A DNA stretch of 64,000 nucleotides from a virus (lineage: Duplodnaviria; Heunggongvirae; Uroviricota; Caudoviricetes): IMG/VR virus record IMGVR_UViG_3300001528_000174, positions 1-64,000 of that record; one strand, 5' to 3'. How positions within the stretch are numbered: the stretch's first letter is position 1; the number at the start of each line of letters is the position of its first letter. The translations under genes and the position numbers were made by a program. The notes under the pieces are model-generated. The model saw only the letters and a program-made list of their open reading frames with translations. It had not been told where the DNA came from and searched no databases. Positions 31,557 through 62,761 of the stretch are shown here, piece by piece.

Positions 31557-32300
31557 TTAATGTCCCAACTCCTACAAAAACTATCTAAAATGGTAAGAAC
31601 TAGTCTGAGGATAATACTCCCGATTATTCATATTGTTATATATATCTATAAAACCTCCAATAGTACCTGTACTTACTCCTATAGGAGTGCCATATTTATT
31701 CCACTAATACTAAATATTACCAACTTTTCTTTGTGGTATTACAGAAAAATCAGTTTGCCAAGTATGTGTACGACTTTCCTAAAGTTTTTTATTCCATTTT
31801 CTATACTAAGGATATTTATAATAAGCTTTAGTATAATCATACTGAGGCTTAGAAGAATAGACATAATTACTAATAAGAGGACTATATTCTGTAGTCTATT
31901 TTACTTTAGGTCTAAATCCACTATACTTTACATATTTACCCCATCTCATAGGAGCCGTATGAGGGTTAATAACTTGATATTCAGGGAATCCCATGCTTGT
32001 ATAATCTCTAAAATCAAATCTAGGATTTGAACCTATTTCTAGCATATTAATAGCTCCTGACTAAGATCCTGAAGAGTAACTTTTTAATCCGATAGTAGGC
32101 TACTACAAAGCACCAAAATATCTACTTTCATTATATGCCTCTCCATAATATCCATTTATATTTAATTTTTTAGCTAACTCTGTAGTCTATTTGGTACCTT
32201 CTTCTATAGATAAAGTGCCCTAAGCTACTTTATTATTAATATCATCAAATAACTAATAATTTGGGTCTGTTCTCTATAATCTATTTTTTATAGAATTTAC
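31557..32300 (-). CDS. TAG-recoded minus-strand gene I, a virion-type protein. Its start is unresolved and it may be fused to gene H by a frameshift.
   Basis: Open frame with many in-frame TAGs ending at TAA (plus-strand tta at 31557-31559): ...GFPEYQVINPHTAPMRWGKYVKYSGFRPKVK(TAG)TTEYSPLISNYVYSSKPQYDYTKAYYKYP.... The frame stays open for ~100 codons upstream of the first ATG and overlaps the end of gene H. Confidence 0.3.
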
Positions 32301-50935: not shown

Positions 50936-52239
50936 TGGGACTTAAATATTAGGGTGACTCAACTCTTGGAGTTTCATTAACTATGCAAACTCCAAAACCT
51001 TTAGATGCAAGATTAGTTGTAGATACTAGAGCAGATTTATATACTATTCCTGCAAAATATGCTTATAATGGAATGCCTGTAGTATGTGTTGCAGATGGTA
51101 ATATTTATACGTTAATAGATAAAAATAACATAAAAGAAGCTGTTGGATGGAAGGCTTCTTACGAATCTATCTAGATAATAACTTGTACAGAGTAGGAATA
51201 TAAATAGTGGTAGAGCAATACTAACGAGAACTTTACTCCTAAAGATGATAGTTAGACTTGGTTACATCAAGATACTTATTATTACATATATGAAGGTAGC
51301 ATTGATGATAAGGGTCAATATTATGTTTCATATTCTTAGTTTGAAGACTTAACTAATTAGGTAAATAAGAAAGCTACTATATCATCTTTAAATAATTTAT
51401 CTGAAAAAACTGATAAAGCTCTACAAGATTTAGCCAATGTATATGCTACTCTTGATGATATAGATAGTTCTAATCCAGATTCTAAACTATCTAAAACTCT
51501 TGATAATTACTACACTAAAGAAAAAGTAGATGATACTTTTGTAACCAAAGAGAGCCTTAGAGGTGAAGGTATAGAAGGAGATGATTTTGTATTTGTAACA
51601 TAGACTACCTATAATAAAGACCAGCAGAATCTAGAAGAGTATAAGAAACAAACTTTAGAAGAATTATTCAATAAAGTTGATACTAACAGTGATGCAGAAT
51701 TAAAGTCTATATCTAATAATGGTAATAAATTAGTTATTAATAAATAGCTTACTATCAATGGGGATTCTTTAGCTTTAGATAAGAATGTCCCTAAAATAGT
51801 AGTGATGGATTAGCAGGAATACGATAACTTAGAAACTAAAGACCCTGACATTTATTATATGACTCATGGTACGGAATCGGATAATGGAGGTATGATTACT
51901 AGTGAGTTTTTAGAAACTAATTATTATAGTTAGGCATAGGTAATTGATTTATTTAATCAAGCTTTAAATAATTTATTTACTGTTTCTGGAAAGGTATTAG
52001 AATTAGGAACAAGTGCATTAAATATGATTTTGGTAGATAAACCTACTGATTAGATTTTTGAATATGATGGAGAAATTCATACTTTAAATAGTACTGATAA
52101 TTATAATGTCGTAGGTGAAGGAGGGTCAGAACCAGGAACTTATAGATTTAAAGTGGCTTTAAGAGCTGGTAAAAGATGGAAGGATAATACCAATACTCCG
52201 ATATTTATAACTTATATTATTAATTAGAAAACTGAATAA
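50935..52239 (+). CDS. TAG-recoded tail-fibre-associated protein of ~434 aa
   Basis: Includes track ORF 50983..51174 in frame. Ends TAA, overlapping the ATG of the DGR target as taATG. Confidence 0.4.
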
Positions 52240-54293
52240 TGCAAACATTAAGTCAATTAAAAATTGGTGATATTATATATGATTTAGCTGCTAAATTTGA
52301 TGCAAATGATAATAATATCCAAGATACTTATTCTACAAAAGAATATGTATCATAGAAAATATCTGAACTAGTAGGATCAGCACCTGAAACTTTAGATACT
52401 TTAAATGAATTAGCAGAAGCTTTAGGAAAAGATCCTAATTTTGCAACTACTATAGCCACTCAATTAGGAAATAAAGTAGATAAAGTAGAAGGTAAATAGT
52501 TATCTACAGAAGATTTTACAACTGCTTTGAAAGTATTATTGGAAAGTCTTCCAGAGCAAATAACTAACAAGTATAATAAACCTTCAGACGGTATTCCTAA
52601 AATAGATTTATCAAAAGAAGTTTAGAACTCTTTAAATAAAGCAGATAGTGCTATACAAGATATTTCTAGTAAATTAGATACTTCTATTTATGAAAGTGAT
52701 AAAGAGACTTTTGCTTTAAAAACAGAAATACCCACTACATTACCAGCTAGTGATGTTAGTACTTGGGCTAAAGCTTCTACGAAACCTGTATATACTGCTG
52801 AAGAAATTGGTTTAGATAAAGTGAATAATACCTCCGATATAGATAAACCAATATCAACAGCTACTTAGACAGCGTTAAATTTAAAAGTAGATAAAGTAGA
52901 AGGTAAATAGTTATCTACTAACGATTACTCTAATGAAGAAAAAGAAAAAGTACAGTAGTTAGGAGCAAGTGTACAATCATTAACTTAGAGTGTAGCTGAT
53001 ATTCAAGGTATAGAAGAATTATTATCTTACGGTATTAGTTTTGATTCTACAGTAGCTGACCCTAAATGTACTAGAGTCGGTAATCCTCTACTACATAAAT
53101 CTTTACCTATACAATCTTAGTACAAAGGTTGTATTGTTAAAGATGGAGTTTTACAATATTATTTGGACCCAAATGATTGGTCTAAAAAAGCGAACTCTGG
53201 AGTTATTGCTGGAAATAATGGCACAGAAGCAGGTTCAGGAGTAACTGTTGGTAACTCTTCTTAGGAGGATGCTGTTTTGGATGGTACAGATGGAGAAGTA
53301 TGTGTGGAAACTCCAGAATTTTATTTAAAATGTACTACTGTAGGGAATATTACTACTATTCGCGAATCATTACAATAGATAGATGCTGATTATAAGAAAA
53401 TCCCATCTATGTTTATAGACGCTTATAGAGGTACTGTAAATGACTCTAAATTACGCTCTGTAGTAAATACTAGTGCAGAATTTAGGGGAGGTGCTAATAA
53501 CTCAAGTTATGATTCTTATTTAGAATCCGACCCATTTAAATGTTTACTTGGAAAGCCTAGAACCAATATCACAAGAGCAAATTTCAGAACTTATGCTAGA
53601 AATATTGGTAAGGAATTATTATCTTATGATCAATACAAAGCAATATTCTATTGGAATTATATAATTGAGTATGCTAATTTTAATTCTTAGTTAGATTATA
53701 ATGCCAATTTAACTTCTGAAGGCTATCATCAAGGGGGTCTTGGAGCAGGACTTACGACATGGGATTGGTCAAGTTGGAGTACTTATAATGGTAATAATCC
53801 TATTACTCCATGTGGTTACGGTAATAATATTGGTAATTTTACAGGCATTAAAACTATCACAGCAGGCAATAAGACTTTCTCAATGCCTCGTTGGAGAGGA
53901 TTTGATAATCCTTTTGGTGATATTTGGACAAATGTTGATGGATGTGTTTTGAAGATTCCAAATATGTATATAATATTAAATAAAGATGATTATACAGACA
54001 ATTTAGATAATATTAAGTACAGTCGTATGTATTCTAACTTACCTACCTCAGAAGGTTATATAAAATCATTTTAGTTAGGTGAATATGCAGATATGGTTCC
54101 TAAAACTGTCGGCGGTAACGCTTCTATATATATGTGTGATTATTATTGGCAAAATTCTAACTTAAATACACTGCTGGTGGGGGGCAGCGTGGATAATGGT
54201 TCTAGTGCGGGTCTCACCTACTTCAACGGCGACCTTTCCGTCGGCAGCACTTACGCCACTGTCGGCGCGCGCGGCGTATGTTTGAAGAAGTAA
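52239..54293 (+). CDS. Tail fibre / receptor-binding protein of 684 aa that is the DGR target gene. It carries a C-terminal C-type-lectin-fold variable region and is TAG-recoded.
   Basis: The length 2055 nt equals 685 codons. Track fragments 53409.., 53883.. and 54093..54293 all fall in frame 0 and are linked by TAG codons. The N-terminus has a tail-fibre motif SAPETLDTLNELAEALGKDPNFATT and repeats KVDKVEGK(TAG)LSTEDFT / LSTNDYS. The C-terminus ...GGSVDNGSSAGLTYFNGDLSVGSTYATVGARGVCLKK is encoded by VR1. Confidence 0.7.
54180..54275 (+). repeat. DGR variable repeat VR1 (96 nt), inside the 3' end of the target gene
   Basis: Aligns ungapped with TR 54486-54581. Every one of the ~22 mismatches is at a TR adenine (A to G/T/C in VR), the signature of DGR adenine mutagenesis. 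Confidence 0.8.
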
Positions 54294-54485
54294 TATAATA
54301 CATAGATACAATATAAATTTTAAAATATAGTTGCTGAATATAGTTGTAATTCGGCGGCGTCAGATAAAATACACTGGGTAAAGCTACCAGGGGAAGCGTA
54401 AATTTTGATACTACAGAATCCCAAAGCCTTGGTATAAATAACTGATATAATAGATTTTCCGCTATAGAGAAAAACTAGGCTAGTA

Positions 54486-54581
54486 GGAGGCAACGTGAAT
54501 AATGGTTCTAATGCAGGTCTCACCAACTTCAACAGCAACAATTCCGTCAGCAACACTAACACCAATGTCAGCGCACGCAGC
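54486..54581 (+). repeat. DGR template repeat (TR)
   Basis: The sequence ggaggcaacgtgaataatggttctaatgcaggtctcaccaacttcaacagcaacaattccgtcagcaacactaacaccaatgtcagcgcacgcagc is rich in AAC codons. It is non-coding in its context and sits 165 bp upstream of the RT. Confidence 0.8.
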
Positions 54582-54746
54582 TTATTATTATAGTTAAAAA
54601 TATTATAGTCCGTTTTATGAGAATATTGTGCTATTTATACCATGCCTCTTGGCAAAAAATAACGTGGATTATAAGTCTTCATATCTGGCTTAGTAGTTAC
54701 GGCGAAAAATCAGAATTTATAATAATACTAATTTAAAATAAGAAAA

Positions 54747-56006
54747 ATGAAACGGAAAGGTGGCTTAATAAAAGAAATTAGCAGTTTTTCTAATGTAAGA
54801 TTAGCTGATAATTATGCAAGACAAAATACTAAAAGTAAACATGAAGTATATGTGCACGACAGTAACCAAGATGAAGAAAATATTATGTTATCAGAGAGTT
54901 TAAAAAATGGAACTTATAAAACCTCTAAATATAAAACTTTCTCTATTTTTGAACCTAAAGAAAGATTAATATTTAAATTACCTTATTATCCCGATAGGAT
55001 AGCACATCATTCCATAATGAATGTGCTAAAACCTATTTGGATAAAAACTTTTATACATCAAACTTATTCTAGTATAGAGGGAAGAGGTATTCATATGTTA
55101 AAACATGAATTATATAAAGTATTAAAAGAACACCCTGAAGAAACTACATATTGTTTAAAAATGGATGTGCATAAGTTTTACCCATCTTTAAATCATGAAA
55201 TATTAAAAACTTAGGTACGAAAGAAAATAAAAGATCCAAAAACATTAGTACTATTAGATGAAATAATAAATTCTACAGATTCTCTAACTCCTGGAGTTGG
55301 AGTTCCTATAGGAAATTATTTATCTCAATATTTTGCTAATGTATATTTATCTGAGTTTGACCATATTATGAAAGAAAAATGGAAATGTAAATTTTATTTT
55401 CGATATGCTGATGATATGGTAGTATTATCTAGTAGTAAGGAGTGGTTACATAATATTTTAGATAAAATAAAAAATTATTTTGAAGTTAACTTAAAACTCG
55501 AATTAAAACCTAATTATCAGATATTTCCAGTGGAATCTAGAGGTATAGATTTTGTTGGATATGTATTTAGACATGATTATGTACTACTTAGAAAATCAAT
55601 TAAAAAGAAACTTAATAAATTAGTATCTAAATATTAGAAAAAGAAAATTGATAAAGAGACTTTTAAAAAATCTTTAATGTCTTATAAAGGATGGCTATAG
55701 CATTGTGATGCTATACATTTAGCTAATTCTATATATAATAAAACTAAAATAAGAGTCTTTATATGGAATGGAAAAAAAGTAAATATATCTTCTTTCTATA
55801 ATAAATATATATGGGTAATTCGATTAACTAGACATAAGAAATTCTTTGAAATATGTTTTAAATATAAAGGTCAAAAATATATAACTAAATCTCAAAATTG
55901 GTTATTATATAACAAGATAAAATTTAGAAAACGACCATTTTATTTTAAATATGACAGAAATAAATTCAAACTCACCTCTCTAGAAGATTTAGAGATTGGG
56001 AAATAA
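54747..56006 (+). CDS. DGR reverse transcriptase of ~419 aa, itself containing 3 in-frame TAG codons
   Basis: Track fragments 54747..55214 and 55368..55637 share a frame. Motifs are FEPKERLIFKLPYYPDRIAHH (RT domain 1-2), GVPIGNYLSQYFANVYL, and the catalytic FRYADDMVVL (YxDD). A C-terminal extension SLMSYKGWL(TAG)HCD reaches TAA at 56004-56006. Confidence 0.85.
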
Positions 56007-56300
56007 TACTTATTATTATAATTATATAATTGAAGTAACTGAAATAATTACTTAGGAAAATGAAACTGTTCCTTTATATAGGTATATTCAGGTACATCTT
56101 AATGGGCAGCCTGAATATAAGCAAATAGTACAAGCAGTTTTAAGAGAATATATTAGTCAAAATGAAGAATTTGATTTAATAAATTCCTATAATAGTTATC
56201 AGAATAAATTGATAGATGATGAATCTGTTGTTACTAAGTATTTAAATTATTTAAAATTAGTTTAGGAAATTAAAACTAATATTAAAAAAGACATAAACAA

Positions 56301-56522
56301 ATGATATATCGAAACGGTAAATTAATTACAGAAGTTCATTAGAATCTTAAAGAATTTATCAATTAGGTATAGCAAATTGTTTAGAGAGATATTGGTGCAA
56401 TATATAAAGGTTCTTAGTTAGTCTGGGTAACTGTTTATAATGCTATTAAAAGTTGTTTTGGTAGTGGTACATGGTTACAAGATAAACCTTGGTTAGATAA
56501 TGACTTTTGGAAAAATAATTAA
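56301..56522 (+). CDS. Small hypothetical protein of ~73 aa with several in-frame TAGs
   Basis: Reads MIYRNGKLITEVH(TAG)NLKEFIN(TAG)V(TAG)QIV(TAG)RDIGAIYKGS(TAG)LVWVTVYNAIKSCFGSGTWLQDKPWLDNDFWKNN. Confidence 0.25.
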
Positions 56523-56572
56523 TACAAATGGCAATTTAGAATTTAAATAAACAAGATTAGCTAGATTTAACA

Positions 56573-59500
56573 ATGAATTGGGATGGTACTACAGGTTAGT
56601 AGGTAGAAGATTTAATATCAAGACATTTACCTGCTAATATGGAGTATGATGGTACTGACAATATACTTACTATTTCCAATAGCAATGGAGATACTATTGT
56701 CTCAGCAGAAGTAAGTGTTGCTCAACCTATATATACTCACTCAATTCAAATTGAAGGAATTTACTTTAATAATACTAGCTCTGAAAATTAGATAAATAAA
56801 GATTCAATACTTTGTAAACTAGGTACTAGGATATATCTTGGAGTTAGATATACCTACACTGCTACTAATCCGTTAACTAATAATACAACTCATGTCGGAA
56901 GTACCCAGAAGGTATTTATAAACATTGGAAATGGATATATTTAGTTAGAATCAGGTATTAAGTCCTCTCCTGATGTATAGTATATAGAAATTACAAACTT
57001 ATATACTAAAGTAACCTCTTCTAATGTATCTATACGTGTTACTGCTTCTGCTGATATAGAAGATAAAACAGTAACAGCTACAACTCCGAAGAAAGTATAG
57101 GTAATCAATCCTATATTAAGGTATTCAAATGATAGCTATATTGTTTCAGGTACAGCTAGTTTCCAAGTATAGGATGGGGGCGACGTATCTTATTTACTTT
57201 ACTATAAAATTAATGATTCAGTAGTTAAGAATCAAGATAACTTAACTTTAGCATTAACTGAATCTGGAGTAAATAAGATTGAAGCTTATGTAGAAGTAGC
57301 TAATAATGCTTCTATCAAGTCTTAGACTTTAAATGTGTAGGTAATAAATACTGGTGGTGTTACAACATTTGATAAAGTATTATATGCAATAAATGAAATT
57401 AGTGCTGATGTAAATAACTGGGAATTTAGTAAGCTATATAAATTATCTATATACTTCAAAGGGTAGTCTTAGGAGGAATCTACTATAATTACTAAACTTA
57501 CTGACACAGGTAACTCAGAATCATACCATTTAAATAAAACTAAGACAATAACTCTAACTGGAGATACTGGTGTAATTGAATAGGATATTAGTTACTTCTT
57601 AGGAATAACTGCATCCTAGAAAGATTTTAGTACAGTCTTAGTAGTAAATATAGATGGTGAAGATACAATTTCTTTTGATAATTCTACTATTATTAAAATC
57701 TTCAATGAAGGCTCATATAGTTATACTCCTAACTGTGCTTATTACTTTGATTAGTATTCTCCTGACAATTCTAATATTGTAACGAAAGATGTTATTGCCA
57801 AAACGATTTCTCCTGATGGATTAATTACTGATGATACTTTAACGGTATTTAGATTGTCTGCTGGAAATTACCCTAATAATATTATTAATTTAGATTTATC
57901 TAATTAGCTAACTACATAGGGATTTACTTTTGAATTAGATTTTAAATCCTATAATATTAGTGATGAATCTAAACCTTTATTAAAGTTAGGTAGATTCATA
58001 TTATATCCTACAGAACTTAATTGGCAGTATGGTAATGTAGATACTTCTTAGGTAGATACTACTGCTAAGAGTTCTATATTTTATGGAGATACTAGAACAC
58101 ATATTTTAATTGAAGTTGTTCCTAATTTTAAAATACCTAAGAGAGAGTTCCCAAAAGATACCATTTCATTGGTAGATAAGACTATAAATTTAGTAAGAGT
58201 ATTTATTAATGGTTGTATCGCCCGTGAGTATAAATATGATTACTTACAAGATTTTTAGTATAATGGATTTAACCTAGAAATTAATCCTGAATCTGCTGAC
58301 TTTGATATTTATGGAATTAGGGTATATAACAAAGCTTTAACATTAAAAGAAATACAAGATAATTATGTATCTACAATGTCTTCGGTCACTGAAAAATCTA
58401 AATTTTAGTAGTTAAATGATTTAGTAGCTACAGATTCCAATAATGATACTTACATATCTTATAATAAAGTTAAGTAGCTTTATAATACTTTAGTATATAT
58501 AATTCCTAATAGACCGAAAGAATTAACTAGATATGAATACCCTCATTAGTTCTCTTTGAAGAAAGGAGAAGTTCTAGAAGGTTGTACCGTATTTATTAAT
58601 TATGTAAATAGTATAGCAACTGATAGTTCTCATATCTTAACGGATGCTTAGATAAATCGTTGTTCTGGTAGATTTATTAATGCTAATGTAAGTGGTCAAG
58701 GAACTTCTGCAATGAAGTATTACTGGTATAATATTCAAATGAAGAAACCTAAGTTTACTTCGTAGGGATGTTATAATGAAGAACTTGATGATTATGTAGA
58801 ACCTACAGATGAAAATCCAAATAACTACTAGTACAATAGTAAATACTACTATATGCCAGAGGATGAAAATTGTACTATTGGTATAAATAAGTCATGTGGT
58901 AAGTTTAATTATGCTTCCTCTATGCAGTCTCATAAGATAGGAGCTGTTAAGGCTTTTCATGATTTGTGGAATGCTTGTGTTGATAAATCCGATTTTACAG
59001 AAGATGAAATAAAAGGAAGAAAAGCTTGTCTCGAAGATGTATTTATAGCATTCTATGTTAATTCAGATTTAGAGGATGTGTCTAACTATAAGTTATCTGA
59101 CTTAGCTTAGTTAGATGATTCTAAAATAATGTTTGCAGGATTCTAGACTTGGGGTTCAGCTAAGGGGGATAAGAATACATTTGGCTATTCCGATGAAACT
59201 CCTGGATATATCTTATTAGAAGGTGCTGAAAATAACGGTGAACTATGTAACTGGTTAGCTCCTTGGAGTCCTAATGTAGTGGAATTAAGTGGAGAAACTT
59301 GGAAAACCAAATAGTTAGAGGTAAGCTCTGATGGTTCTACAAAGTATTCTTTATCTGATTCATTTGATGTAGACTTTGGATTAAATGATGCTGATGAAAC
59401 AGGCAGCACAATGTCTACTGAAGGATAGAAAACTTTAAATAAATTTATAGAAGCATATAATTTTGCTTATATGCATACTATTAATTTATTGCCTTATAAA

Positions 59501-62500
59501 GAGACTTATTCATTGAATGATTCTCGTAATAGTCTTGACCCTAATAAGAAATATTATATTACAAGTATTAACTATTAGGATAACACATATTTTAAAGGCT
59601 CTCAATGGGATGTATTTAGATATGATACATATTCTAAATTATGGGTTCCTGCTGGTTTACCTGTTTTAAATGAAAATGGTACTTAGAAACTATCCTCTGT
59701 TAGAAGTGCTTATAATACTGATGTCTATGAGTATGAAACATTTAACTTAAAGACATTCCATCAATAGTTAGGAACTTCTGGTACTGAGAATATTAACACT
59801 TATATATCTGATTTAAAAACCGATTTTAAAAATAACTTTGGTAAATACTATCATGTAGATGATATAATTTATCATCAAGCTTATATTAGATTATTTGCGG
59901 GTACTGATAATAGAGCTAAGAATACTTACTTTAAATTATTTAATAAAGACTGTAAGATTTAGTTGCTACAAGATGACCTTGACACCATTTTAGCTACTGA
60001 TAACCGAGGTCTTTAGAATAAACCTTATTTCTTATTAGAACCTTCTCTAGAATCTGATAAAACATATCAATCAATGTGGGGCGGTGCTAGTGCATTCTTT
60101 GAGTTAATAGATATAGCCTATAAAGAAGAAATAGATGCTATGTTACTAAAAATGTTAACTCAAATGAAATTTACAGATGGCAGTAACACTTCTCTTGATT
60201 CTTGGATGACTAAGTATTTCTATTATGTACAAAATTATTATCCAGCTGTAACATTTAATTATGTAGCAAGATTAGCTTATGAAGCAGCATAGTTATTCTA
60301 TGACAATCGTTCAATAACTGGAAAAAACTGGACTAATAATGGACAAGACCCACTATCACAAGAACATGGAAGTTGTTTACCAAGTGAAATTGCTTTTATG
60401 CGGAAGCGTTTGACTATGTTTATTAGTTAGGCACGATTAGCACAATTTGGTAGAGAAGGTGTAGGTATACCACTTAAAGTATCGGAAAATTCTTCGGAGG
60501 ATGCTCAACATTATGATGTTAATATTACTCCATATTAGTATTTATACTTGGGCTATTTAGTTGGTAGTGTAAGTAACTTATATACTAATAAGAGAATTGC
60601 TGCTGGAGAAACTTTAAAAGTAACTGTTGATATGCCAAATGGTACACCATCGTACTATGTAACAGGAGATGAATATATTTCTAAGTTTGATAATTTTAGT
60701 CAGGTATTATTTAATAAAGGAACTTATTCACTTACTACTCCAAAATTATTAGAGTTTTCTGCCAATACAGGTACAGATGAATTACCTTTATTCTAGCCAC
60801 CATATTTAACCCTTGATTGCAAGGTTTTAGAGAAGTTAGATTTAACTAATGTACGTTCTTTAACTACTATAAATCTTGACTCAGACCATACTCCTAAATT
60901 AAAGGAAGTTATTTTAACAGGAACTAATATATCTAATGTTACTTTACCTATTGGTAGTAGATTAACTAAGATACATTATCCAGCTGCTTTAACTAATTTA
61001 GTTATTTCTAATAATGAAGGACTTGAAGAAGTTAAGTTTGAAGGATTAAATAATTTAGAGACTGTTGATATTAACTGTGCTAAAGTTGGACAATTTGATA
61101 TTACAAACTTCTGTGAATAGTTAATATCTTGTCCTAGTCTTAAGTCTGTTACTTTGAGAAATCTAAATAATAAGATTTCACTAGAAGCATTAGAGAAACT
61201 TATATTATTGCAAGCAAAACTTACAGGTACATTAACTATTGCTAATTCAGGTAACTAGTTAGAAGGTATTAGTTATACTGATAAGATTAATTTAGTTAAT
61301 TTATATGGAAATATAGACTCTGATTCTAATAGTTTATACATTAAATATAAAGAGACTATTGCTTATAGTATTTCTTGTGAAACTGAAATATCTATCTATG
61401 GTCAAGGATATTCAGGAAATCCATTTGGTTTAAGCCTTGATGGTAACAATATAGCTTTAATCACAGAAGGTGGTAAAGTAATTCCCGATATTACTTATAG
61501 ATTTAATACAGACGTATCTGATGTAGCTACTATAAATAACAGAACAGGTGTTATTACTTTGAAACAAGCATCTTCTTCTAAAACTACTACAGCTACAATC
61601 ACTGTAAAATTAAAGAATGGAAATACTTTAACTTCTAAGACTATTAATATTTATTTTGCTTGGAAAGCTCCAGAAATAGGAAACTTTGTATATGCAGATG
61701 GTACTTATTCAAGTGCATATATGACCAGTAAGACATTAATGGGATTGATATTTGCTATAGATAAGACTACGGATAACTCAGGTACTGCTTATATCGTGGG
61801 TAAAGAATATCTAGACCCTCAATATGTAGGTTATTCAAATGAAGCAAATCAAGAGGCTTCAGATGCTAGAAAAGACTTATATAATGTTAAATTCTGGCTA
61901 AATAATCAAGTTTCAGGTTTAGGAGATACATATTACAATAGTAAAAATGTAACAAGTAACATGGACTCTGATGCTAGTTAGGCTATTACATTAACTTCAT
62001 TTAGTTAGAAGAGTCCTTCTACATTTACAGGTAAGGCTGATACTAAAGCGTATGTGGATAATGTAAACAATACCTTACTGCCTCTTATAGTAAAAACGTA
62101 CCCATCCTTAATTAATGCTTCAGGTGATACTTATAGTATAACTTCTAGATAGAACTTAGATGCATTATTAAATAGTATACCTAATATAGCTAGTTAGAGT
62201 TTAGAGTAGATGTAGTGTTTACTATATCCATACTTCTATGAGACTTACTTATATGAACCTACAGTGACTGATTCTGAAAGGAATACAGAAGTTTTTTAGA
62301 CATATTTTAGTAAAGGTAACTGGTATGTCCCATCTTATTAGGAGCTAGCTACTTTGATTTATTATAGAGGCTATAGTGCAGCTGGAGATAATTTCTCTAC
62401 TGGCGATATTCCATTGAAATCTAACATATCAGATTCTATAACCAAAGGTTCAGGCGATTTAAAGAATCCTATTTTCTCTACTGCTTATAAAAATGCAGGT

Positions 62501-62761
62501 AATTATATGCCAGCAGTATGGAATACCTTAGCAGATTCTAATAACTTATGTACTAATGTAGATATTAGTAGTCATAACTATACTTATTAGGAGATAAGCA
62601 ATTATTCTTCTAGTGGTTATTTATATAGTTATCAATGGGTGCCGGGAACTAATGACGGAAATAACATTGGAATGGGTACTTCAGCAGCTGCGTATAATGG
62701 TTGGAGATTATTAAAACATAGACCTTTACCATGTGTACAATTTAAATATCAATAGAAATAA
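56573..62761 (+). CDS. Giant tail / virion protein of ~2062 aa with ~60 in-frame TAG codons and a leucine-rich-repeat region
   Basis: Track fragments 58853.., 60074.., 60548.., 61559.. and 62354.. are all in frame 2. TAG positions 57323, 58256 and 61118 were verified in frame. There is an LRR-like stretch near 60.8-61.2 kb (LDLTNVRSLTTINLDSDHTPKLKEVILTGTNISNVTLPIGSRLTKIHYPAALTNLVISNNEGLEEVKFEGLNNLETVDINCAKVGQFDITNF). Ends TAA at 62759-62761. Confidence 0.55.

Follow-up and report, generated by a model that had tools for sequence, protein, structure and literature searches.

The DNA analyzed here comprises positions 1 to 64,000 of IMG/VR virus record IMGVR_UViG_3300001528_000174; this whole 64,000-nucleotide (nt) stretch is called the window, and all coordinates refer to it. 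Between positions 52239 and 56006 the window holds what is very probably a diversity-generating retroelement (DGR). On the plus strand, a tail-fiber gene (target gene 1, 52239–54293) ends in a variable repeat (VR1, 54173–54275). A non-coding template repeat (TR, 54479–54581) follows on the same strand, and then a gene for a reverse transcriptase (RT, 54747–56006). VR1 ends 18 nt before the stop codon of target gene 1, and the TR ends 165 nt before the start codon of the RT, the gap that had been given in a preliminary description made from the sequence alone. A second variable repeat (VR2, 1722–1801, minus strand) lies in a gene for a protein of 203 amino acids (aa; target gene 2, 1624–2235, minus strand).

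Read with the standard bacterial code, the cassette region falls into short open reading frames (ORFs), and target gene 1 and the RT gene are open only when TAG is a sense codon. Reading through TAG across the window doubles the total ORF length, and the longest ORF, 680 aa when TAG is a stop, becomes 2080 aa. Of the loci compared at a conserved EYANFNS-Q site in target 1, 18 have TAG and seven have CAG or CAA, and because of this alternation we read TAG as glutamine. The lengths reported in the preliminary description, 684 aa for the target protein and 419 aa for the RT, are correct only with TAG translated, at 12 in-frame positions in the first and three in the second. In-frame TAGs are confined to ORFs at 31.5–64 kb, and nearly none are found in ORFs at 1.2–31.3 kb. 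Judged from codon content, such a distribution agrees with what has been described for phages whose late genes have a recoded stop codon. The RT and target gene 1 belong to the recoded block and target gene 2, which has no in-frame TAG, to the unrecoded one. The split is sharp: ORFs at 1231–31317 are essentially TAG-free, and those at 31557–64000, on both strands, hold up to 52 TAGs.

In an ungapped comparison at an offset of 306, VR1 and the TR correspond over 103 nt with 20 mismatches, all 20 of which fall on TR adenines (15 A to G, three A to T and two A to C). Adenine accounts for 34 of the 103 TR bases, and the probability of placing all 20 mismatches on adenines by chance is ~2e-10. The first difference off adenine is at 54276, where VR1 has G and the TR has T. 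The repeat was also recovered independently as repeat family D1; GC content is 65% in VR1, 49% in the TR and 29.8% in the window. The preliminary description had recognized a 96-nt pair (54180–54275 and 54486–54581) with about 22 adenine-only differences. The pair exists at those positions and its adenine specificity holds for every mismatch; the count is 18 within the 96-nt span and 20 over the adenine-only stretch, which reaches 7 nt further 5′. The diversified codons had been named as AAC, which is right in part: AAC is among them, together with AAT, ACC and ACT. In the frame of the VR, the TR and its 34 adenines include ten AAY (AAC or AAT) codons, and the variable positions of VR1 correspond to these ten and to three ACY codons, giving ~4e13 possible peptides.

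VR1 has a hypervariable core at 54186–54259 (plus strand); its 5′ end (54173–54185) and 3′ end (54264–54275) show fixed A to G differences only. The 3′ end carries a GC-only 13-mer, GGCGCGCGCGGCG (54264–54276, plus strand), whose copy in the TR reads AGCGCACGCAGCT. The three A to G differences between the two are invariant across all VR1 and VR2 copies, and the two sequences resemble the pair of initiation of mutagenic homing (IMH) and IMH* elements. By analogy with the IMH of Bordetella (PMC3240598), the 13-mer may serve as the IMH of this element. We looked for a cruciform directly 3′ of VR1 and found none that was convincing, nor any pattern there common to VR1 and VR2. When IMG/VR was scanned for exact matches to the TR's non-adenine positions, none was returned, because the sole close relative carries a G to A change.

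Comparison of related genomes reveals the same specificity. The closest cluster of RT relatives (P0001, 95% identity) comprises at least 10 contigs from several samples, and in all 10 loci of this cluster the TR is identical to that of the window over its 103 nt. VR1 occurs as six distinct alleles in nine copies (the window and eight relatives). Across these copies 23 columns vary, and all 23 are TR adenines, so that the heterogeneity restricted to adenine-templated positions that had been expected of the VR is present between related genomes. The 300 nt upstream of VR1 in the relatives are ~93% identical to the window, and VR1 itself is 84–87% identical.

Target 1 matches the tail protein family phrog_5302 through its last residue (E 1.8e-91), and its N-terminal repeats match many tail-fiber families. 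To represent its C-terminus we used a structural model of a homologue (P0158) whose 286 C-terminal residues show 86% identity to target 1; the underlying alignment contained 38 homologues. The model has a predicted local distance difference test (pLDDT) score of 80 and a predicted template-modeling (pTM) score of 0.83. It supports the display of the variable residues on a C-type-lectin fold, in agreement with the scaffold first proposed for this C-terminus. The modeled lectin domain shares 10–20% sequence identity with the solved DGR variable proteins TaqVP, TvpA and Mtd, and the domain of target 1 differs from them in that it ends a 684-aa phage fiber with coiled N-terminal repeats.

The RT matches Pfam RVT_1 (E 5.5e-16) and phrog_1423 (E 1.4e-113). 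Its best match among solved structures is 8ub7_A, a 328-aa RT that aligns with residues 2–325 (E 9e-40; retron and group II RTs come next as a class, at 4e-15). We identify 8ub7_A as Bordetella bRT because the numbering of the chain (I181, G182, Q187) agrees with the published bRT. The sequence of the RT holds PIGNYLSQYFANVYL, FRYADDMVV and SYKGWL(TAG)HCD. D140, PIGNYLSQ (187–194) and YADD (220–223) are invariant or nearly so in 34 RT relatives. On these sequence features the enzyme belongs to the DGR clade, as its YADD and SYKGW.H motifs had initially suggested, and bRT is its closest solved relative. The bRT-like core (residues 1–325) is followed by a basic C-terminal extension of ~95 aa (residues 326–419). 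This extension is not found in bRT. It is conserved in the crAss-like branch of the family, with RTs of 405–431 aa, and missing from a sister branch with RTs of 316–361 aa.

VR2, which had been named only in passing, was located on the minus strand in a scan of the window that used the TR's non-adenine positions; the scan found no further VR besides VR1 and VR2. Aligned with TR 54482–54576, VR2 shows 21 mismatches, every one of them at an adenine, and an in-frame deletion of 15 nt in it is bordered by short TR repeats. It is located near the C-terminus of the 203-aa protein, 52 kb from the cassette and on the opposite strand. The protein has 37 homologues, mostly on ~180-kb contigs. Twenty homologues (P0124–P0143) are almost identical except at the hypervariable VR-encoded positions, and two loci (L098 and L099) hold full-length VR2 copies that differ from the window TR almost only at adenines. 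Given the VR-confined variation in the homologues and the adenine pattern of these two copies, we consider the VR2 protein family a genuine diversified target. Related cassettes contain ORFs of ~135 aa (YYPWF..SSGFGFS..VGSRLC) that bear a second VR to the same TR and lie between the main target and the TR (L073, L076, L080, L084, L091, L082 and L090). The 203-aa protein is homologous to these ORFs (hhalign probability 96%, E 1.9e-9), which makes a small second target a recurring part of this DGR lineage. Target 2 has no similarity to target 1 outside the VR-encoded stretch, and its AlphaFold2 (AF2) model, at a pLDDT of 45, is unusable, so that no fold was assigned. A few bases past the 3′ end of VR2 lies a 14-nt near-palindrome, TATTTCTAGAGAAATA on the coding strand (window 1697–1718), with no equivalent at VR1. 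It may act as a target-recognition hairpin for the remote target.

The non-coding sequence around the TR is more conserved than the protein it precedes: 54369–54746 is 95% identical in locus L003, whose RT is only 86% identical. The Rfam motif RT-17 (RF03020) is located in the TR–RT spacer, and in the related locus L063 it scores 40.4 bits, equal to the gathering score, at the same position. We compared 48 distinct TR–RT spacers from 80 related loci. Three helices (P1, P2 and P3) recur in these spacers, and all three are present in the window by manual parsing. P1 (54643–54660, plus strand) is the hairpin UGCC-UCUU-GGCA followed by an A-run, aligned both in Rfam RT-17 and in our family alignment (A9). 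No other non-coding motif in the family is conserved as well as P1, in which L018 carries a G-C to A-U change. The P2/P3 element (54684–54714, plus strand) consists of P2 (UCUGGCU paired with AAUCAGA) enclosing UAGUA, P3 (GU[UACG]GC) and GAAA. P2 (54684–90 with 54708–14) is 73% paired in register versus 34–54% when shifted, and 3–6 types of pair are seen at each position. Across the family, the P3 hairpins show covariation; they are GNRA-looped in most relatives and UACG-looped in the window, and their second pair, U·G here, is C-G in L010 and U-A in L003. The window element thus resembles RT-17 in its TR–RT position, in P1 (CC-UGCC-loop-GGCAAAA) and in the UGGUA-hairpin-GAAR core, and differs in having UAGUA instead of UGGUA and a 2-bp, UACG-looped P3. 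Weinberg et al. 2017 (PMC5737381) did not settle what RT-17 does; the one motif that they tied to a DGR was RT-10, found at this position in BPP-1, and they guessed that other RT motifs belong to DGRs. Our comparison gives RT-17 a probable function as a DGR RNA scaffold downstream of the TR.

The TR is bracketed by a duplex of 11 bp with perfect complementarity (inverted repeat I18). Its 5′ arm, UGGUAUAAAUA (54430–54440, plus strand), lies 39 nt upstream of the TR, and its 3′ arm, UAUUUAUACCA (54632–54642, plus strand), abuts P1 directly. None of 100 shuffles reached 11 bp. Equivalent duplexes of other sequence occur in 22 of 61 related loci, each matched by at most five of 100 shuffles. The 3′ arm is set off from P1 by 0 or -1 nt in the clade of the window; in a second clade the gap is +5 nt throughout. 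A TR-bracketing duplex with a stem-loop and adenosines, the counterparts of P1 and its A-run, is also the arrangement of the 'cPRT Stop' in the Bordetella ribonucleoprotein, a study of which predicts similar duplexes in 207 other DGRs (bioRxiv 10.1101/2023.10.23.563531).

These positions do not agree with the preliminary description, which had offered two GC patches in the VR–TR spacer (54350–54363 and 54385–54397) as possibly forming the RNA structure needed for priming. The patches are arms of local hairpins conserved in close relatives only. The family-wide RNA elements lie in the TR–RT stretch at 54632–54714, and only the 11-nt arm at 54430–54440 in the VR–TR spacer pairs with them. The first patch is the 3′ arm of a hairpin at 54330–54358 (plus strand; GUUGCUGAAU / AUUCGGCGGC) that appears in both the minimum-energy and the centroid structures of RNAfold. 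Its stem is identical in L010, with a different loop; it shows no covariation and has no counterpart in distant relatives. This hairpin could either terminate transcription of the target gene or make up the 5′ part of the TR transcript. Folding 54330–54750 as a single sequence was uninformative (z-score 0.33), and a promoter and terminator scan, whose coverage excludes Bacteroidetes-type promoters, gave counts near shuffle expectation.

The phage that carries the element is a large (~180 kb) crAss-like phage of the gut, in whose late genes TAG is read as glutamine. The large terminase subunit TerL (42875–45307, plus strand, 13 in-frame TAGs and otherwise uninterrupted) and the portal protein (45551–47722) were identified by PHROGs. 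The nearest annotated relatives of TerL are Crassvirales, with 26–28% identity over ~77% of the length, and no closer annotated relative was found. Window proteins have 95–100% identical counterparts on contigs of 178,517 and 180,499 bp. The phage matches the zeta crAss-like group, a provisional assignment made by traits and not by tree. Passages of a 2025 paper on this group (PMC12386605) describe low-GC genomes of 155–190 kb in which amber or opal codons are recoded; 18 of the 43 genomes carry DGRs, and seven RT genes contain amber codons. These genomes share with the window the tail-fiber target-VR-TR-RT order, a GxxxSQ RT, a lectin-fold target C-terminus and an amber-interrupted RT. By these passages, zeta crAss-like phages are already known to combine a large recoded genome with an RT that amber codons interrupt and with the absence of Avd. 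The RTs are of similar size, up to ~414 aa in the passages and 419 aa here; the GC content of 29.8% in the window stands against 34–35% for the amber-recoded DGR carriers listed there, a comparison by description only. A remote second target and RNA elements, both of which the window has, are unmentioned in the passages searched. DGRs of crAss-like phages have been known since 2020 (PMC7290462), and remote and multiple targets are already known for DGRs in general. What the window adds is modest: a family of remote small-protein targets and the link between RT-17 and a DGR RNA scaffold.

Cassettes of two other crAss-like phages, LMMB (Carjivirus) and cr7_1 (Burzaovirus coli), retain the target–RT synteny and show 68–69% DNA similarity over parts of the target and the RT. 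The cr7_1 cassette is also similar in having TAG in target and RT and, 3′ of the RT, a homologue of an ORF of 117 aa that is described below. Both phages differ from that of the window in their genomes of ~100 kb and their families (Intestiviridae and Suoliviridae), and LMMB lacks the 117-aa ORF. The more distant Bordetella phage BPP-1 (mtd-avd-TR-brt) is alike in its adenine-specific transfer from TR to VR into the C-terminal lectin fold of a tail fiber, in an RT core homologous over its whole length and in a GC-rich VR 3′ end that differs from the TR copy. In contrast to BPP-1, the window has no avd between VR and TR and no recognized Avd-binding stem-loop. It also has the additional ~95-aa RT extension, a second target 52 kb away and genes that need TAG suppression, and at the equivalent place the Rfam motif is RT-10 in BPP-1 and RT-17 in the window.

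The best explanation for these observations, and one that we hold with high confidence, is an intact DGR with two targets in a large, TAG-recoded crAss-like phage. In such an element a transcript spanning at least 54430–54714, with ends that we can place only provisionally, would contain the non-coding TR, closed into a loop by the duplex of 54430–54440 with 54632–54642. The loop would be followed by the P1 hairpin with its A-run and by P2/P3, an assembly like that of RT-17 and the Bordetella 'cPRT Stop'. Starting at a presumed priming site, the RT would copy the TR into cDNA, misincorporating opposite adenines. The cDNA would then replace VR1 at the lectin-fold tip of the fiber, and also VR2 in the 203-aa protein, and the ten AAY and three ACY codons would be rewritten. 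Because of the three in-frame TAGs in its gene, the RT would be made only once TAG is suppressed, which would be late in infection.

Several observations weigh against an intact and active element. At eleven TR adenines, all VR copies have G, which pure random mutagenesis of adenines does not predict. Those at the 5′ end (54482–88) plausibly mark the limit of the region that is actually replaced, and those at the 3′ end (54570–79) fall within the GC-only 13-mer; a mid-repeat site, 54515, is synonymous and also G in all VR copies. The deletion in the window VR2 is absent from all homologues, and this copy may now be a poor substrate. No suppressor tRNA with the anticodon CTA, as translation of the RT and the target would require, is present among the 13 tRNAs of the window, and the TAG suppressor must therefore come from a gene in another part of the genome or from some other source. 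The RT-17 match of the window covers the full model length at 25.3 bits (E 0.013 in a 521-nt search), below the gathering score of 40.4. Candidates of 5–7 bp for the template:primer duplex and the priming nucleotide were no better than shuffles. The evidence for diversification comes from comparison between assemblies, and the phage's own population is only presumed to be diversifying still. Finally, no Avd was found, a point taken up below.

Some of these points invite the reading that the cassette is a relic, which once worked, left the adenine pattern and no longer diversifies in this genome. The private deletion in VR2, the eleven adenine positions fixed as G and the lack of both suppressor tRNA and Avd in the window would all fit decay, and passages of the zeta crAss-like paper (PMC12386605) themselves question whether such cassettes still operate. 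We nevertheless regard a relic as improbable. Both the window and at least 10 close relatives have a full-length RT ORF that retains every catalytic motif, and conservation is higher in the non-coding RNA elements than in the RT protein. In addition, a TR that is identical despite flanks of ~93% identity, next to VR1 copies of 84–87% identity that differ at adenine columns only, indicates repeated recent retrohoming in the lineage. A different proposition, in which the RT is part of some other type of retroelement (a retron, a group II intron or a defense RT) and the 3′ end of the fiber gene was duplicated for unrelated reasons, is refuted. Duplication and drift do not produce adenine-only mismatches or the population variation seen here, and nearly all of 66 related loci keep the TR linked to the RT. 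Although some database records annotate homologues as 'retron-type RNA-directed DNA polymerase', the match to bRT is 25 orders of magnitude better than that to retron or group II RTs, and the DGR-specific SQ motif is present.

An intact DGR without Avd calls for closer consideration. Avd is found in most DGRs, not in all. The gene order target-VR-TR-RT without a recognizable avd, as read from the sequence at the outset, was borne out by the wider comparison: the arrangement is kept in nearly all of the 66 related loci, and the VR–TR spacing is 150–300 nt in 51 of them, which therefore have no room for avd. The Pfam Avd family matched none of the local ORFs and none of the 38 window ORFs of 85–200 aa, in a window that covers 64 kb and leaves ~116 kb of the genome outside. 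Searches of PDB sequences for Avd relatives, made with the 117-aa family and with the RT extension, also gave no match. Either there is an unrecognized or distant accessory protein, or this clade works differently. An active DGR that depends on an accessory protein (a distant Avd, a non-Avd protein such as the 117-aa ORF, or the RT extension) is a serious possibility, which we rate at somewhat less than even; it concerns the mechanism and not the identity of the element. Bordetella bRT is inactive without Avd, which it needs for catalysis (bioRxiv 10.1101/2023.10.23.563531). The zeta crAss-like phages Lera and ct1yV3 encode Avd, yet the same passages report none in 16 of 18 zeta crAss-like DGRs (PMC12386605).

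Candidates for such a protein can be named in the window and its relatives. The 117-aa ORF (55951–56304, plus strand, four in-frame TAGs, phrog_11557) overlaps the 3′ end of the RT gene and has no sequence relative in Pfam or the PDB. Of ~97 related loci, 65 have a homologue directly 3′ of the RT, as do 78 of the 80 loci found by searching with the ORF itself. This linkage makes it a candidate, but in two RT-less loci (L171 and L176) the homologue tracks the fiber instead, directly 3′ of a fiber gene with the same lectin domain. Since it follows the fiber gene in these loci, the protein is more likely a fiber partner than a DGR accessory, and we rejected it as the missing accessory protein. 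In some relatives the 117-aa homologues are fused to an extra domain of ~150 aa. The RT extension, basic and conserved in the crAss-like branch and not present in bRT, was likewise rejected as a substitute for Avd and is kept as a low-probability idea: short-RT relatives without it also have compact avd-less cassettes, so that its presence is uncorrelated with the absence of avd. At the usual place of avd, several relatives whose VR–TR spacers are long (L058, L061, L068, L071, L082, L087 and L090) have a conserved ORF of ~111 aa (DDGSL..FNC..FFTNS..FPRKVTM), which has no Pfam match. Homology between this VR–TR ORF and the RT extension was suspected from a similarity by eye and dismissed, as no relation was detectable (hhalign probability 0.07%). 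From its sequence and position, the ~111-aa ORF may be an undescribed DGR accessory protein.

The alternative to an accessory protein can be combined with the nature of the second target. In this joint reading, which we regard as doubtful, the small second target would be an obligate, non-fiber target acting inside the cell and not on the virion, and the RT clade would retrohome without any Avd. The intracellular role is suggested because target 2 is encoded among the unrecoded genes, which are presumably expressed early. Within the same reading it is conceivable, and to our minds just as doubtful, that the TR-bracketing duplex and the RT-17-type RNA, perhaps with the RT extension, replace the positioning otherwise provided by the Avd pentamer. 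The region 54430–54714 together with the RT is a defined construct for asking whether a DGR RT works without Avd.

In the human gut, crAss-like phages rank among the most abundant viruses, and a working fiber DGR bears on how they keep pace with the variable surfaces of Bacteroidales. The element does not establish a new principle. It is a well-supported example that joins three features usually treated separately, namely recoding that would gate RT expression, an Avd-less cassette with Bordetella-like RNA and a recurring small-protein second target.

Several neighboring features were recorded in addition. Directly downstream of the cassette, 56528–62761 (plus strand) is an ORF of 2077 aa with 52 in-frame TAGs, presumably encoding a large tail or structural protein. 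The 13 tRNA genes form two clusters, at 8384–9947 and 21060–23489 (minus strand), and include tRNA-Gln(UUG) at 21825–21896. The unrecoded block, on the minus strand, also encodes a transposase-like ORF at 6872–7882 (phrog_10081, E 1e-15), an SPFH/flotillin-like protein at 13268–14821 (Band_7, E 3e-22, plus Flot) and a protein with a LytTR DNA-binding domain at 21440–21799 (E 1.6e-12). In MT835539.1, an 89%-identical unannotated relative, the TerL match falls into three pieces over 4.5 kb, which implies an insertion (an intron, an intein or a homing-endonuclease gene).

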